Position numbers and translations under genes: made by a program
NCBI GenBank assembly: GCA_902475645.1
Contig: CABSAH010000001.1
Location: forward strand, 1-37,825
Source of the DNA: an uncultured Christensenellaceae bacterium
GTDB taxonomy: Bacteria > Bacillota > Clostridia > Christensenellales > CAG-138
Length of the DNA: 37,825 nt
Direction of reading: 5' to 3'
The notes under the pieces: model-generated
What the model saw: the letters and a program-made list of their open reading frames with translations, nothing else
What the model was told of the DNA's origin: nothing
Databases searched by the model: none
Shown: positions 3,143 to 32,051 of the stretch, piece by piece
Position numbering within the stretch: position 1 is the first letter of the stretch
How the letters are laid out: each line of letters opens with the position of its first letter

Positions 3143-4052
3143 AACTGCCAATATGTCCCGCGAGGACTGGCTCAATCTGCGTCGGCACAGCATAGGCGGC
3201 TCCGATGCGGCTGCAATAGTGGGGCTTAACGAATATGCCTCCCCCTTCTCCGTGTGGGCGGATAAGCGCGGGCTGACGGAGGACAAGCCCGACAATGAGG
3301 CCATGCGGCAGGGGCGCGACCTTGAGGAATATGTGGCGCAGCGGTTTTGCGCTGAGACGGGCAAGCGCGTTAAGAGGTGCAACTACACGCTGTATAACAC
3401 GCTGTATCCGTTCGCCCATGCAAATATTGACCGTAGTATCGTGGGAGAGAATGCGGGGCTTGAATGCAAAACAACTTCCGCTTTGAACATGCGGAAGTTC
3501 AAAAACGGCGAGTTCCCCGCAAATTACTATGTACAATGCATGCATTATATGGCCGTCACGGGCATGGATAAATGGTACTTGGCCGTGCTTGTGCTTAACA
3601 AGGCTTTCATGGTTTTCGAGATAGAGCGGGACGAGGGCGAGATTGCGGCGCTTATGGCCGCCGAGGAGGAATTCTGGGCGCATGTGAATGCGGGCGTTCC
3701 GCCCGCACCTGACGGCAGCAAGGCCACCACCGACGTTATAACCAAACTATACGCGGAAGCATATACGGACGATGTTGTCAATTTGGCTGACTGTATGCAA
3801 AATTTCTATGAGCTGAAAGCAATACAGGAGCAAATGAAAACGCTGGAGAGCCGAAAGAACGAGCTGCAAAACGTTATTAAAACGCACATGGGAGCCTCAG
3901 AGCGCGGAGAGTGCGGCGACTTCACCGTTACATGGAAGAATCAGAGGCGCACAAGCTATGATATGGGACGCTTAACGGCTGACTACCCCGACATAGACTT
4001 AGCAGGGTATGCGCGCACTACTCAAACGCGCGTTTTCAAAATAAGCATATAA
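3120..4052 (+). CDS. YqaJ-like viral recombinase-domain exonuclease (PD-(D/E)XK, lambda Exo-like)
   Basis: N-terminal signature REDWLNLRRHSIGGSDAAAIVGLNEYASPFSVWADKRG and the later ECKT motif, both typical of the YqaJ family. Immediately precedes RecT. Confidence 0.85.
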   Translation: MMTMKKIKTANMSREDWLNLRRHSIGGSDAAAIVGLNEYASPFSVWADKRGLTEDKPDNEAMRQGRDLEEYVAQRFCAETGKRVKRCNYTLYNTLYPFAHANIDRSIVGENAGLECKTTSALNMRKFKNGEFPANYYVQCMHYMAVTGMDKWYLAVLVLNKAFMVFEIERDEGEIAALMAAEEEFWAHVNAGVPPAPDGSKATTDVITKLYAEAYTDDVVNLADCMQNFYELKAIQEQMKTLESRKNELQNVIKTHMGASERGECGDFTVTWKNQRRTSYDMGRLTADYPDIDLAGYARTTQTRVFKISI

Positions 4053-28609: not shown

Positions 28610-30175
28610 ATGGCTCAATCAACAGATAAAACATTAAAACAGCTTATAATCAACAAAATGCCGCGAAGCGTGTACAAAGCGAAGGACGCGGCCGGGGAGC
28701 TTGACCCCGAACAGGTGTATCTCCCCGATTCGGCATACGATGACAGCCTCGGCATAACCTCCGCTACCCCCGGTCAAATCGTAAAGGTCAAGACCGTGCA
28801 GGACGGCAAGCCGACCGAGTGGGAAGCGGTGAACGATTACCCCGCAGTGCAAACCCGCTATGGGGTGCGCTTTACCGGAAGCCCCCCGGAGGGGGAGCGC
28901 CTGTATGGTGCCGTGGGGCTAAAGGCAAACGTGGGCGTGGGCGCAGAGCTTGTCGAGAATGATTTTGACTACATCATGCCGTGGGCGGGTATGAAACGCT
29001 GTAATACAAAGCTTGTTAACGGGGAGCGCGTGCCGACATTTTACGAGGGTGAACCGGGCTTTTCAAACACGGCGGCAGACGTTTTTGTGCAAGTGCCACG
29101 CTTTTATTATTTTAGGAGCGATGATGATGCGGAGCATGTCGTTTCGATGTACCCCCTTGCGGGATACCGCCCTCCCGAAAAATTTCGCCGTGCCGATGGG
29201 ACGCTGCGAGACTATGTTTTCCTCCCCGCGTATACGTCAGCGCTGGTGGACGGCGTTCCGGTGAGCCGTAGCGGGCTTTATGCGTATATGGCGTCTTTGA
29301 ATGGCTGGATGAAGCTGCTCTCCGATATGCACGCCGCCGGAAAGCTTGATTCGGATATATGGATTGAAGGCACAAAGGACGAGGACATCGTGCGCATTTT
29401 GTGCGACATCGAATTTGCGACGCGCGACCACCAGACCAAAATGATGGGCGCTTGCCTAATGAGATATGCCGACGACACTGTAGTAGAGGGAGGTGTAAAT
29501 CAATTTACCTTATCGCCGGAAATAGCTGCAAAATATGTCATAGGTCAGGCGATTGCCATTGGCACGGCTGATAAAGGTCAGCAGATTGCAATGAACGCCA
29601 CAATTACGAGCATAGACGCCGGCGTCATTACTTTCGAGCCTTCGGACGCTGATGTGACGGTAGAAGCGGGGCATTTCGTTTCTTCAATGCCGTGGAAATC
29701 AGGAGCTTGCGACGGTGTTAAGGCTTCGTCCGGCTCACCCATTTCAAATTCAAACGGCATATATCCGTGTAAATACAGGGGCATTGAAAACCCGTGGGGC
29801 AACCAATTCCGTTGGCGCTGGGACGTTCTTGTGAATGACTATGTGCCTTCGGTCTTACTCGACCCCACGAAATATGCGGATGGTAGGCTGACAGAGGACT
29901 ATCACGCGCTTGCTTACACTATACCCACAACGGCCGGTTATGCAAAAGAAATGGGCTATGACCCAGAATTTCCGTTTGTCCGCATAACAAAAGAGCTGGG
30001 TGGCACATGGAACTCGTTTTTCGCGGATTATAATTGGGTCAACGCTGGCTTGCGGGCGCTTCTTGTCGGGGGTGGCGTGAACGGCGGTCGTGGCGCTGGG
30101 TTGCGGTACTGCAGCGTGGCTGGCGCGCCGTCTAGCGCGAACTGGAGCATCGGCGCGGCTCTTTCTCCCGCGTAA
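28610..30175 (+). CDS. Tail fibre / receptor-binding protein, the DGR target protein with a C-terminal variable region
   Basis: 521 aa. The N-terminus KQLIINKMPRSVYKAKDAAGELDPEQVYLPDS is typical of fibre anchors. The last ~40 codons are the VR copy of a VR/TR pair, with a lectin-like ...GGGVNGGRGAGLRYCSVAGAPSSANWSIGAALS end. Confidence 0.85.
   Translation: MAQSTDKTLKQLIINKMPRSVYKAKDAAGELDPEQVYLPDSAYDDSLGITSATPGQIVKVKTVQDGKPTEWEAVNDYPAVQTRYGVRFTGSPPEGERLYGAVGLKANVGVGAELVENDFDYIMPWAGMKRCNTKLVNGERVPTFYEGEPGFSNTAADVFVQVPRFYYFRSDDDAEHVVSMYPLAGYRPPEKFRRADGTLRDYVFLPAYTSALVDGVPVSRSGLYAYMASLNGWMKLLSDMHAAGKLDSDIWIEGTKDEDIVRILCDIEFATRDHQTKMMGACLMRYADDTVVEGGVNQFTLSPEIAAKYVIGQAIAIGTADKGQQIAMNATITSIDAGVITFEPSDADVTVEAGHFVSSMPWKSGACDGVKASSGSPISNSNGIYPCKYRGIENPWGNQFRWRWDVLVNDYVPSVLLDPTKYADGRLTEDYHALAYTIPTTAGYAKEMGYDPEFPFVRITKELGGTWNSFFADYNWVNAGLRALLVGGGVNGGRGAGLRYCSVAGAPSSANWSIGAALSPA
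30048..30166 (+). repeat. DGR variable repeat (VR)
   Basis: Gap-free 119-nt alignment to 30255-30373 at an offset of 207 nt. There are 16 mismatches, all opposite adenines in the other copy. Confidence 0.9.
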
Positions 30176-30214
30176 GCGGGAACTGGTAAGGGGGTACGGG
30201 GGCGAAAGCCCCCG
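30167..30214 (+). promoter_or_regulatory. Two GNRA-loop hairpins directly 3' of VR (candidate DGR target-recognition element)
   Basis: CCCGC-GTAA-GCGGG at 30167-30180, where the loop contains the target stop codon. CGGGGGC-GAAA-GCCCCCG at 30197-30214. Confidence 0.55.
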
Positions 30215-30254
30215 ATTCTTATAGATTCGGATTGGACGCGGGGCGTCGGTGGGT

Positions 30255-30373
30255 GCTTGCGGGCGCTTCATGTCGGAGGTAACGTGAACAACGGTCGTAA
30301 CGCTGGGTTGCGGTACTGCAACGTGAATAACGCGCCGTCTAACGCGAACTGGAACATCGGCGCGGCACTTTCT
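30255..30373 (+). repeat. DGR template repeat (TR), non-coding template RNA
   Basis: Rich in AAC/AAT codons. 16 of its 25 adenines differ in VR, and no other base differs. Lies between the target gene and the RT. Confidence 0.9.
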
Positions 30374-30514
30374 TGGTTTTGTTGGATTTCGCGTCCTCTC
30401 CCGTGCCACAGCGCCCGTAGGGGCGGCGGGCAAAAGCCCGTGCAGAAATAGACCGTTCCAGACGGGGTTAGTAACGCAAGTGAAACCCCTGTAGGTCAAA
30501 AGAAAGATGATTGG

Positions 30515-31612
30515 ATGAAACGTTATAAGGGTAAAGACATGACCGACCGTGACTTGATTCGGTTGGCTATAATGAACGCCGCAAAGCGAAAGAAAAACCG
30601 CGCCGAAGTGAAGCGGGTGCTTGCGGATATCGAAAGCCACATTACCATAATTCAACATATAATCGTTGAAGAAACGTATAAGCCCGCACCATACAGAGTT
30701 TTTGAAGTAGTTGACGGCGTAAGCGGGAAACGCCGCACCGTGAGCTGTTCGAGATTCTTTCCAGACCAAGTGCTTCATTGGCTGGTGATTCTGTCCGCGC
30801 AAGACATTTTTATGCACGGGATGTACGAATTTGTGTGTGGGAGCGTCCCGAATCGCGGCATTCATTACGGACGAAAGTATGTCAAGAAATGGATAGAAAC
30901 AGACCGGAAAAATATAAAATACTGTGCAAAGCTGGATATAACCAAATTTTACCCATCGATAAGCCATGATGCTTTGAAAGCATCCTTACAGCGAAAAATC
31001 AAAGACCGCAAATTGCTGTGGCTGTTTGACGTGATTATTGACAGCACGGAAAGCGGGTTGCCGATTGGGAATTATACATCACAGTGGCTTGCAAATTTCC
31101 TTCTCCAAGATTTAGACCATAGAATCAAAGAAGAAATGCATATCGCGCATTATATGAGGTACATGGATGATATGGTTTTGCTTGGTGCTAACAAGAAAAG
31201 GTTGCACGCGGCAATAAACGAAATTGCGGCGGCACTTGCACCTTTGGGCTTGACGCTGAACAAAAATTGGCAAGTTTTTCGCGTTGATTATATTGACAGA
31301 AACGGCAAGCGCCGTGGGCGTGATATTGATTTTATGGGATTCCGATTTTTCCGCAATAAAATCATAATGCGAAAAAGGATATCGCTTCGGGCACGGCGGC
31401 TGGCGGCGCGTATATCAAAGTCAGAATGTGTCACCTTTAAGCAAGCTGCGGCTATACTTTCGTATATGGGATGGCTTAAGTATTCTGATTCTTTTGGATT
31501 TTATGAAAAGCACATAAAACCAAAAATCAATATATCAAAGTTAAAGGAGGTAGTAAGGAGTGAAAACAGAAAGCGCAAGCAGGCAACCGAAGTATATACT
31601 CGAACCGCTTGA
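30515..31612 (+). CDS. DGR reverse transcriptase
   Basis: RT motifs AKLDITKFYPSI, LPIGNYTSQWLANFLL (the [LIV]GxxxSQ DGR signature), YMRYMDDMVLLG (YxDD) and DFMGFRF. 365 aa. Visibly more AT-rich than its neighbours. Confidence 0.9.
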   Translation: MKRYKGKDMTDRDLIRLAIMNAAKRKKNRAEVKRVLADIESHITIIQHIIVEETYKPAPYRVFEVVDGVSGKRRTVSCSRFFPDQVLHWLVILSAQDIFMHGMYEFVCGSVPNRGIHYGRKYVKKWIETDRKNIKYCAKLDITKFYPSISHDALKASLQRKIKDRKLLWLFDVIIDSTESGLPIGNYTSQWLANFLLQDLDHRIKEEMHIAHYMRYMDDMVLLGANKKRLHAAINEIAAALAPLGLTLNKNWQVFRVDYIDRNGKRRGRDIDFMGFRFFRNKIIMRKRISLRARRLAARISKSECVTFKQAAAILSYMGWLKYSDSFGFYEKHIKPKINISKLKEVVRSENRKRKQATEVYTRTA

Positions 31613-32051
31613 TTTTGGGCGGGTTCGCGTGACACTTTTTGCCAACGAAAAAACGATTGAGCAGGAAGACGGCACACATTACCTGTATGACGTCTACTCG
31701 ACAGTAACGCTGAATCGCCCGTCACTGGGGCAGTACATCTCAGGGAATCTTGATGAGTGGATAGCGGCCTATGAGGAAGCAGAGATAGAGGAAGTAGCCG
31801 CTGCCGCCCGCCGTGCCCGTGACCGTTTGCTTGCTGAATCGGATAAGACGATGGTGCTTGACAGGATGGGGCTTAACATCCCCGAAAACATAACCGCTAC
31901 AACGCTGCTCCCTGCCGCTCAGGGGCTTTTCCGTGCGCTGCGTGCAGCTTGCAGCGGCGAGTGGGCTGCGTATAGACAGGCTTTAAGGGATATCCCAGAG
32001 CAAGCGGGTTTCCCGTATGAGATTGATTGGCCTAAAAAGCCGGAAATATAA
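31560..32051 (+). CDS. Tail fibre assembly chaperone-like protein
   Basis: GTG start 9 nt after AAAGGAGG. ARDRLLAESDKTMVLDR...WAAYRQALRDIPEQAGFPYEIDWPKKP matches the phage tail assembly chaperone C-terminal pattern. Overlaps the RT 3' end by 53 nt. Confidence 0.6.
   Translation: MKTESASRQPKYILEPLDFGRVRVTLFANEKTIEQEDGTHYLYDVYSTVTLNRPSLGQYISGNLDEWIAAYEEAEIEEVAAAARRARDRLLAESDKTMVLDRMGLNIPENITATTLLPAAQGLFRALRAACSGEWAAYRQALRDIPEQAGFPYEIDWPKKPEI

Follow-up and report, generated by a model that had tools for sequence, protein, structure and literature searches.

How does a diversity-generating retroelement (DGR) rewrite its target gene when its accessory protein Avd is nowhere to be recognised? Avd is essential in the only DGR that has been dissected biochemically, yet about one quarter of DGRs are devoid of it; in a survey of 372 DGRs avd was found in 275 and was absent in 97 (26%) (Wu et al., 2018, NAR 46:11, PMC5758913). 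The question is raised by a stretch of 37,825 nucleotides from an uncultured Christensenellaceae bacterium, called the window in the following, which is an entire 37.8-kb contig of a metagenome-assembled genome (MAG; 1.84 Mb, 83% complete) and in which a fibre gene, a template repeat (TR) and the gene for a reverse transcriptase (RT) follow each other closely. An earlier note, made by a model from the letters alone, had drawn attention to this layout. The window very probably represents a Clostridia phage, temperate or virulent, with a DGR that rewrites the tip of a phrog_5302 fibre, using an RT of a clade that works without any Avd and belongs to an already published avd-less class.

A complete retroelement without a recognisable Avd

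The element is a complete DGR, comprising a TR and variable repeat (VR) pair, an adjacent RT of the DGR type and a VR at the 3' end of the target gene (Table 1). TR and VR are 119 nt long and 87% identical, and all 16 mismatches fall on adenines of TR. The target protein matches the 'tail protein' family phrog_5302 (E 1e-42) and no family of Pfam, and phrog_5302 is the target family in 72 of 79 relatives from IMG/VR as well. The RT is 29% identical to the bRT of phage BPP-1 over 292 aa, with IGNYTSQ aligned to IGSLTSQ of bRT and the YMDD motif present, and it carries no extra domain. Its last ~35 residues (31510-31612) form a Lys/Arg-rich tail past the region that can be aligned to bRT, and the stretch encoding this tail shares its DNA with the next gene. 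This next gene starts with GTG at 31560, preceded by AAGGAGG, and since the RT gene ends at 31612 the two share the 53 nt that had been reported before.

The avd gene of the canonical BPP-1-type cassette (Architecture B, avd-TR-RT) is missing. The target stop codon (TAA, 30173-30175) is separated from TR by 79 nt (30176-30254) and TR from the ATG of RT by 141 nt (30374-30514), and no open reading frame (ORF) of at least 40 aa lies wholly within either gap, in agreement with the earlier note. Only two ORFs touch the gaps, a 44-aa frame coming from the end of the target gene and a 64-aa frame starting with TTG (30257-30451), which probably is not a gene, being the TR copy of the fibre C-terminus continued over 78 nt of the spacer. 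An RT that starts further upstream and includes an Avd-like N-terminal fusion, as the same note had considered, is excluded because only 21 codons of open frame precede the ATG (386 aa in place of 365 aa). Pfam scans of ten neighbouring genes revealed neither an HRDC nor a MutS domain.

Four profiles were used to search for Avd: PF22296 (bAvd), NF033474, PF05635 and TIGR02436. PF05635 (23S_rRNA_IVP) is often quoted as the Avd family. In six-frame searches this profile missed both positive controls, the Avd of BPP-1 and the Avd of the Faecalibacterium phage Lagaffe, and negative results with PF05635 and TIGR02436 therefore weigh little. PF22296 and NF033474 were adopted because hmmscan places genuine phage Avds there, PF22296 scoring 123 bits with BPP-1 Avd and 52 bits with Lagaffe Avd, and NF033474 holding BPP-1 Avd as well. 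PF22296 recovers BPP-1 Avd in a six-frame search (E 2e-37) and finds an Avd in three of five genomes of distant RT relatives (24-34% identity), in two of these three with match coordinates within the range of the RT locus. With these controls positive for PF22296, all four profiles remained negative in the window and, as described below, in the MAG, so that the absence of a recognisable avd, as first noticed, is confirmed. None of the other small ORFs left unclassified in the window resembles Avd, each being either acidic or too short. An hhalign screen with a two-sequence Avd profile against all 172 six-frame ORFs of 60-260 aa gave a best probability of 6%, for a tail-completion protein, and has low power because the control pair of BPP-1 and Lagaffe Avd reached just 20%.

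Table 1. Elements of the retroelement and its flanking genes, in positions of the window
Feature	Position	Strand	Evidence and remarks
DGR target gene, 521-aa tail/fibre protein	28610..30175	+	phrog_5302; VR in last ~40 codons
Variable repeat (VR)	30048..30166	+	direct repeat of TR, inside 3' end of target ORF
Hairpin CCCGC-GUAA-GCGGG directly after VR	30167..30180	+	sequence and fold; target stop codon in loop
7-bp all-GC hairpin CGGGGGC-GAAA-GCCCCCG	30197..30214	+	candidate target-side recognition hairpin or cruciform
5' arm GGAUUGGACGCG of long-range duplex	30229..30240	+	pairs 10/12 with 30390-30401
Template repeat (TR)	30255..30373	+	repeat comparison with VR
U-rich unpaired linker, 16 nt	30374..30389	+	from TR end to 3' arm; position of the 11-bp Avd-binding stem-loop of BPP-1 Sp
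3' arm CGCGUCCUCUCC of long-range duplex	30390..30401	+	abuts P1
P1 of RT-18 RNA, three-way junction	30404..30444	+	predicted UGC/GCA closing stem around two inserted hairpins; alignments A3, A4
First inserted P1 hairpin CGCCC-GUAG-GGGCG	30412..30425	+	covaries: CGUCC/GGACG in L090, UCCCA/UGGGA in L091
Second inserted P1 hairpin CGGGC-AAAA-GCCCG	30427..30440	+	first hairpin of the earlier note
RT-18 (RF03021) match	30434..30505	+	37.6 bits, E 3e-5; full-length model 1-84
RT-18 linker, single-stranded GAAAUA	within 30434..30505	+	RT-18 match
RT-18 P2	30451-30454 with 30494-30497	+	RT-18 match
RT-18 P3	30462-30467 with 30487-30492	+	contains GGGGTT/AACCCC of the earlier note (30464-30469, 30484-30489)
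RT-18 internal loops, conserved UAGUA (30469-30473) and GAAA; apical mini-hairpin	within 30434..30505	+	
Purine-rich tract AAAAGAAAGA	30498..30507	+	conserved 3' tail of RT-18; AAGA(A/G)AG nearly invariant in A3, A4
DGR reverse transcriptase, 365 aa	30515..31612	+	PF00078 56 bits; phrog_1423 E 2e-100
Acidic protein, 163 aa, isoelectric point (pI) 4.9	31560..32051	+	C-terminal tail-fibre assembly chaperone domain PF16778

A clade of compact and active cassettes

At 24-74% identity, IMG/VR contains 212 relatives of the RT, metagenomes contain 308 and GTDB genomes 37, and about 170 relatives at 33-74% identity have the same compact VR-TR-RT layout. A TR/VR pair with adenine-specific mismatches is found in 173 retrieved loci (individual loci are designated by L numbers). 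Among the relatives listed, TR and RT are separated by ~100-245 nt, as judged by the called RT starts, and VR and TR by 63-146 nt, the latter distance being therefore too short for a gene of ~350 nt. The single exception is L012 with a VR-TR gap of 402 nt (3312-3713), which offers room for a small gene; PF22296 and PF05635 are negative on this contig. Two cultured phages belong to the clade, the Butyrivibrio phage Arawn (MN882550) and the Lactobacillus phage LBR48 (NC_027990).

Cassettes with the layout of the window are actively diversifying, and this diversification is adenine-specific. A set of 30 near-identical phage contigs from the human gut carries five distinct TRs and 30 distinct VRs, with variation of the VRs at 25 of 26 TR-A sites and at none of 26 G sites, and 2998 of the 3240 VR differences between pairs with identical TR are located at TR adenines. 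The copy in the window itself is presumably still active. An exact 46-nt word from its spacer was not encountered in the metagenome and genome collections.

Three clade members (L177, L178 and L187) reside on contigs that binning has assigned to MAGs of Tannerellaceae, Bacteroidaceae and Bacteroides. These bins may provide a link to the Bacteroides-restricted avd-less Lineage 3a of Wu et al. (2018), or they may reflect mis-binning.

A conserved RNA in the spacer between TR and RT

In its 3' half the spacer contains an RNA of the Rfam family RT-18, which is matched over the full length of the model. RT-18 is matched in all 33 relatives, in 26 of them above the gathering score and with up to 64.6 bits, and in Arawn with 34.6 bits; no match is found in BPP-1 or Lagaffe. 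Folding on paper, as in the earlier note, is no evidence by itself because shuffled versions of the single spacer sequence fold equally well (z = +0.18), and the support comes instead from covariation among relatives. RNAalifold on a MAFFT alignment of 20 spacers predicted P1 and P3. When P1, P2 and P3 were specified, 91.9% of the cells were paired as compared to 39-48% in controls with slid partners, 11 of the 15 RT-18 pairs change on both sides, and none of 500 shuffles attained the covariation score; these pair counts leave out L018, L020, L022 and L075, which have large apical insertions. Covariation of P2 and P3 is likewise seen inside the sublineage of the window, in which the predicted UGC/GCA closing stem of P1 is invariant. 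Both hairpins of the earlier note are located at the positions given there (30427-30440 and 30464-30489) and are part of the minimum free energy fold, and the structured spacer that it envisaged turns out to be a conserved RNA for which covariation analysis across relatives is positive. By comparison with BPP-1 this spacer might constitute the self-priming part of the DGR RNA. The purine-rich tract at its 3' end is likely to be the ribosome-binding site of RT.

The loop of P1 accommodates an insertion of two hairpins in the window and its close relatives, and an analogous insertion is present in Arawn. Such two-hairpin modules are also found elsewhere. In a human-gut sub-clade (L013, L015, L017, L021, L023 and others) two hairpins are situated ~40-75 nt after TR, between P1 and the 3' arm of the duplex described below, so that similar modules occupy different places: the window, L002 and Arawn have them inside the loop of P1, the human-gut sub-clade before P1. 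In the spacers of L018, L020, L022 and L075 insertions of 40-100 nt add extra hairpins to the apical part of P3, and RT-18 scores are 18-25 bits.

A duplex that brackets the template repeat

Upstream of P1 a long-range duplex appears to enclose TR, its 5' arm lying 15 nt before and its 3' arm 17 nt after the repeat. Within the window's sublineage the arms change in a compensatory manner: the core GGACGCG/CGCGUCC of the window corresponds to GGAAGCGC/GCGCUUCC in L002, L088 and L089, to GAAUGUGC/GCACAUUC in L090 and to GAACGCGC/GCGCGUUC in L091. RNAduplex returned a non-specific global solution for the GC-rich sequence of the window (z = 0.3), and the duplex was identified instead by its position and by comparison within the sublineage. 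A further test was anchored solely on the 13 nt that precede a simple P1 hairpin. In about 20 more distantly related loci, 12-13 of these 13 nt pair with a site upstream of TR, at a distance of 14-39 nt (p<=0.007, 300 shuffles). The sequences of these arms are unrelated save for their GGG.../...YCC ends. As expected, this anchor is too simple for loci that have hairpins between 3' arm and P1; there the duplex was found by other means.

How does this RNA compare to the one for which the particle structure is known? In BPP-1, the 5' end of the spacer (Sp) is an 11-bp stem-loop that binds Avd, and a single-stranded 'Thumb Ring' together with a long interrupted 3' stem binds bRT (Handa et al., 2024, bioRxiv 10.1101/2023.10.23.563531). 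By analogy, the bracketing duplex could be the counterpart of the 'cPRT Stop' duplex of BPP-1, the single-stranded linker may be equivalent to the Thumb Ring, and P2/P3 would take the place of the RT-binding stem.

The target side contributes structures of its own. The hairpin directly after VR covaries among relatives (CCGGCGU/ACGCCGG, GAUGC/GCAUC, GCCUC/GAGGC). The all-GC hairpin further downstream is kept in L002 and L088-L090, and a GC-rich hairpin is present at the same position in most relatives. This second hairpin is a loose fit to the terminator pattern and possibly acts as a weak terminator; a promoter scan of the VR-TR gap revealed no promoter-like site. Guo and colleagues reportedly described in 2011 a hairpin or cruciform 3' of VR in BPP-1, to which both hairpins of the window presumably correspond.

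Does the downstream gene replace Avd?

The protein encoded next to RT was considered as an accessory that could replace Avd. Its chaperone domain is unambiguous (PF16778, 64.5 bits as compared to a cut-off of 26.6 bits) and its gene follows those for fibre and RT. Of 183 related loci, 179 (about 98%) have a small acidic ORF (70-190 aa, pI 4.1-4.9) that starts within ~130 nt of the RT stop codon, in translational coupling with RT, and in 156 the two overlap. The N-terminal ~55 aa are common to the acidic ORFs of the clade and the protein of the window (alignment A5, 31 sequences), with the consensus ..W...ES...P...D.......VY.R.NI....Y.E, and the A5 profile matches the window protein with E 7e-18. 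The family corresponds to no Pfam family and gives only weak PHROG matches. A comparison of small alignments by hhalign, the 163-aa protein against acidic ORFs of 76-139 aa, yielded a probability of 29%, the wider alignment A5 being more convincing. Both this constant position and the common N-terminal domain speak for a function in the DGR, as does the published description of CH1, an acidic accessory protein of 160-169 aa found only in avd-less DGRs (Wu et al., 2018), to which the window protein conforms in size and pI. It could be imagined that such a protein passes mutagenised fibre tips on to folding or recruits the RT-RNA particle.

The distribution of the family argues against this proposal. 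Among 399 genomes of the same class the A5 profile matched nine others, and in seven of these RT is directly upstream; in the other two neither TR nor RT intervenes between a phrog_5302 fibre gene and the acidic ORF immediately after it (L206, 2011-4902 of G170:C18; L207, 3365-5718 of G313:C331). One of these RT-free genomes is 100% complete and contains no RT at E<=1e-10, and the RT-free fibre has 30% identity with the target of the window, extending through the region equivalent to VR. Since the pair of fibre and partner thus exists without TR-RT, the acidic protein is most readily understood as a partner of the fibre and not as a substitute for Avd. The C-terminal domain points in the same direction: the PF16778 fusion is restricted to the window's sublineage, it is a genuine chaperone domain that matches the Tfa proteins of phages without DGR, and tblastn aligns the protein to these Tfa genes over residues 102-163 only. 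Moreover, an acidic protein is an unlikely substitute for a basic nucleic-acid binder. That this protein, possibly related to CH1, replaces Avd is therefore improbable, and a second role as the missing DGR accessory, perhaps as CH1 itself, beside that of a fibre partner appears just as doubtful. If it were true, the 'Avd-less' DGRs of the clade would not be free of accessory proteins. The suggestion in the earlier note that a TR-RT unit had been inserted into a fibre-chaperone pair is borne out insofar as the unit sits inside a pair that also exists alone, which may reflect either insertion here or loss elsewhere.

Could Avd be supplied in trans?

An avd gene could alternatively be located elsewhere, on the host chromosome, possibly in an unassembled part of it, or in another prophage. 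Such an arrangement is conceivable as the MAG is 83% complete and as avd, TR and brt of BPP-1 work in trans (Wu et al., 2018). In the 1.84-Mb MAG, however, PF22296 has no match at E<=10, PF05635 and TIGR02436 are negative, and NF033474 finds only a match of 11.6 bits with an internal stop codon on another contig. PF22296 also finds no Avd in Arawn or in 30 IMG/VR contigs of RT relatives, 15 of which are at least 90% complete. Five host genomes in which clade members occur, among them Clostridium leptum DSM 753 and a MAG submitted as one chromosome record, gave no credible match either. A remote avd for avd-less cassettes was likewise sought in vain by Wu et al. (2018). Finally, it is implausible that a function of the lytic cycle relies on a host gene that is absent from most hosts. 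Trans-complementation, which the earlier note had left as an option, is thus disfavoured and must be regarded as very unlikely.

Equally remote is the idea that the copy in the window is decaying or inactive, its lack of Avd reflecting loss of function instead of Avd independence, since the RT frame is intact with its catalytic YMDD, TR and VR differ purely at adenines, none of the RNA elements conserved across the clade is missing and clade members of the same layout visibly diversify.

How could the element work without Avd?

The preferred reading of a DGR that needs no Avd suggests the following sequence of events. The DGR RNA would span at least ~30229 to ~30505, with the long-range duplex closing TR into a loop. 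The duplex would be followed by the P1 junction, a conserved single-stranded A-rich linker and the long interrupted P2/P3 stem, which ends at the putative ribosome-binding site of RT. The RT would bind to this RNA upstream of its own gene, prime in cis and copy TR with errors at adenines, and the resulting cDNA would replace VR, with the GC hairpins immediately 3' of it as a guide. Of the Avd-binding segment of BPP-1 there seems to remain a linker of 16 nt, which would be consistent with a particle of RT and RNA that does not need Avd. The anatomy of the locus, the lack of a recognisable Avd, the conservation and covariation of the RNA and the adenine-specific diversification in clade members are observed, and the roles of the RNA elements as well as cis-priming are deduced by analogy to BPP-1.

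Several points weigh against this reading. Avd is poorly conserved and can be missed by profile searches, and the MAG is incomplete. The RT-18 score of the window is 37.6 bits and thus 3.7 bits under the gathering score of 41.3 used by Rfam, because the P1 loop carries the two-hairpin insertion. Some relatives, for example the L013 group, have a hairpin directly after TR, so that 'loss of the Avd-binding hairpin' does not hold for the entire clade. The closest relatives of the window's RT are only 71-74% identical, and present activity of the window's copy is thus presumed. The roles assigned to the RNA elements derive from one solved ribonucleoprotein of a distant, Avd-dependent DGR.

The clade is a good model for the study of Avd-independent homing, with about 170 loci, the cultured phages Arawn and LBR48, and demonstrable activity in metagenomes of the gut. 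A drawing of the clade's RNA has become possible, as a TR-bracketing duplex followed by RT-18, with the Avd-binding position almost empty in the member from the window. A two-part mutagenesis module of RT and RNA would also be of interest for DGR-based tools of directed evolution, which at present co-express bRT and Avd. A report of a reconstituted avd-less DGR was not found in the literature searched.

Comparison with known systems

An avd-less DGR is nothing new in kind, contrary to what the earlier note implied: the element is an ordinary member of a class known from publications since 2017, and the RNA in its spacer already has an Rfam entry as RT-18. In the classification of Wu et al. (2018), Architecture A comprises 75 DGRs with TR-RT and no accessory gene, and in the comparison with these avd-less classes that had been proposed the window matches Architecture A1, in which target, TR and RT are found on one strand with no gene for Avd, HRDC or a MutS-like protein nearby. 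One RT lineage of that study, 'Lineage 3', lacks avd, and the authors concluded that some DGRs use Avd-independent homing. Absence of avd follows the RT tree, the window's clade being devoid of it throughout, and the Avd-independent retrohoming deduced in that study would fit, the likeness being one of layout. The window's 163-aa protein fits CH1 by published size and pI, a comparison by description only. The available part of the text does not mention a link of this clade to RT-18, a duplex bracketing TR or a fibre-partner gene, nor does it name LBR48 or Lactobacillus.

BPP-1 (mtd-avd-TR-Sp-brt; Handa et al., 2018, PMC6182149) likewise has a tail-fibre target, a VR at the 3' end and one or more GC hairpins 3' of VR. 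Its spacer between TR and RT is 144 nt long as compared to 141 nt in the window, and in both the RT gene is immediately preceded by a long interrupted stem. Unlike the window, BPP-1 has avd, its spacer belongs to RT-10 and not to RT-18, and an 11-bp Avd-binding stem-loop stands where the window has 16 nt.

The Faecalibacterium phages with a DGR are, like that of the window, phages of gut Clostridia, and Lagaffe and Mushu are the only types among them for which an Avd homologue was reported (Cornuault et al., 2018, PMC5883640). The RT of FP_Epona is 38% identical to that of the window. Lagaffe differs from the window in having a bAvd between target and TR and no RT-18, and is of the Avd-dependent type. 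Closer are the two cultured members of the clade, whose RTs are 43-44% identical to that of the window although phage backbones and hosts differ. In Arawn, target and RT are 375 nt apart, with an RT-18 match and without bAvd, and in LBR48 a small ORF overlaps the end of RT by 47 nt; the records of both phages annotate a 'reverse transcriptase' and not a DGR.

Of the RNAs RT-1 to RT-19 that were discovered near RT genes, only RT-10 was tied to a DGR, as the spacer of BPP-1, and others were speculated to belong to other DGRs, with no specific role proposed for RT-18 (Weinberg et al., 2017, PMC5737381). What is new here is the link of RT-18 to an avd-less clade, the covarying duplex that brackets TR and the evidence for the acidic gene as a partner of the fibre. 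For RF03021, the full-length match in the window and the covariation of its P1, P2 and P3 pairs in relatives place this RNA in the spacer between TR and RT of an avd-less DGR clade.

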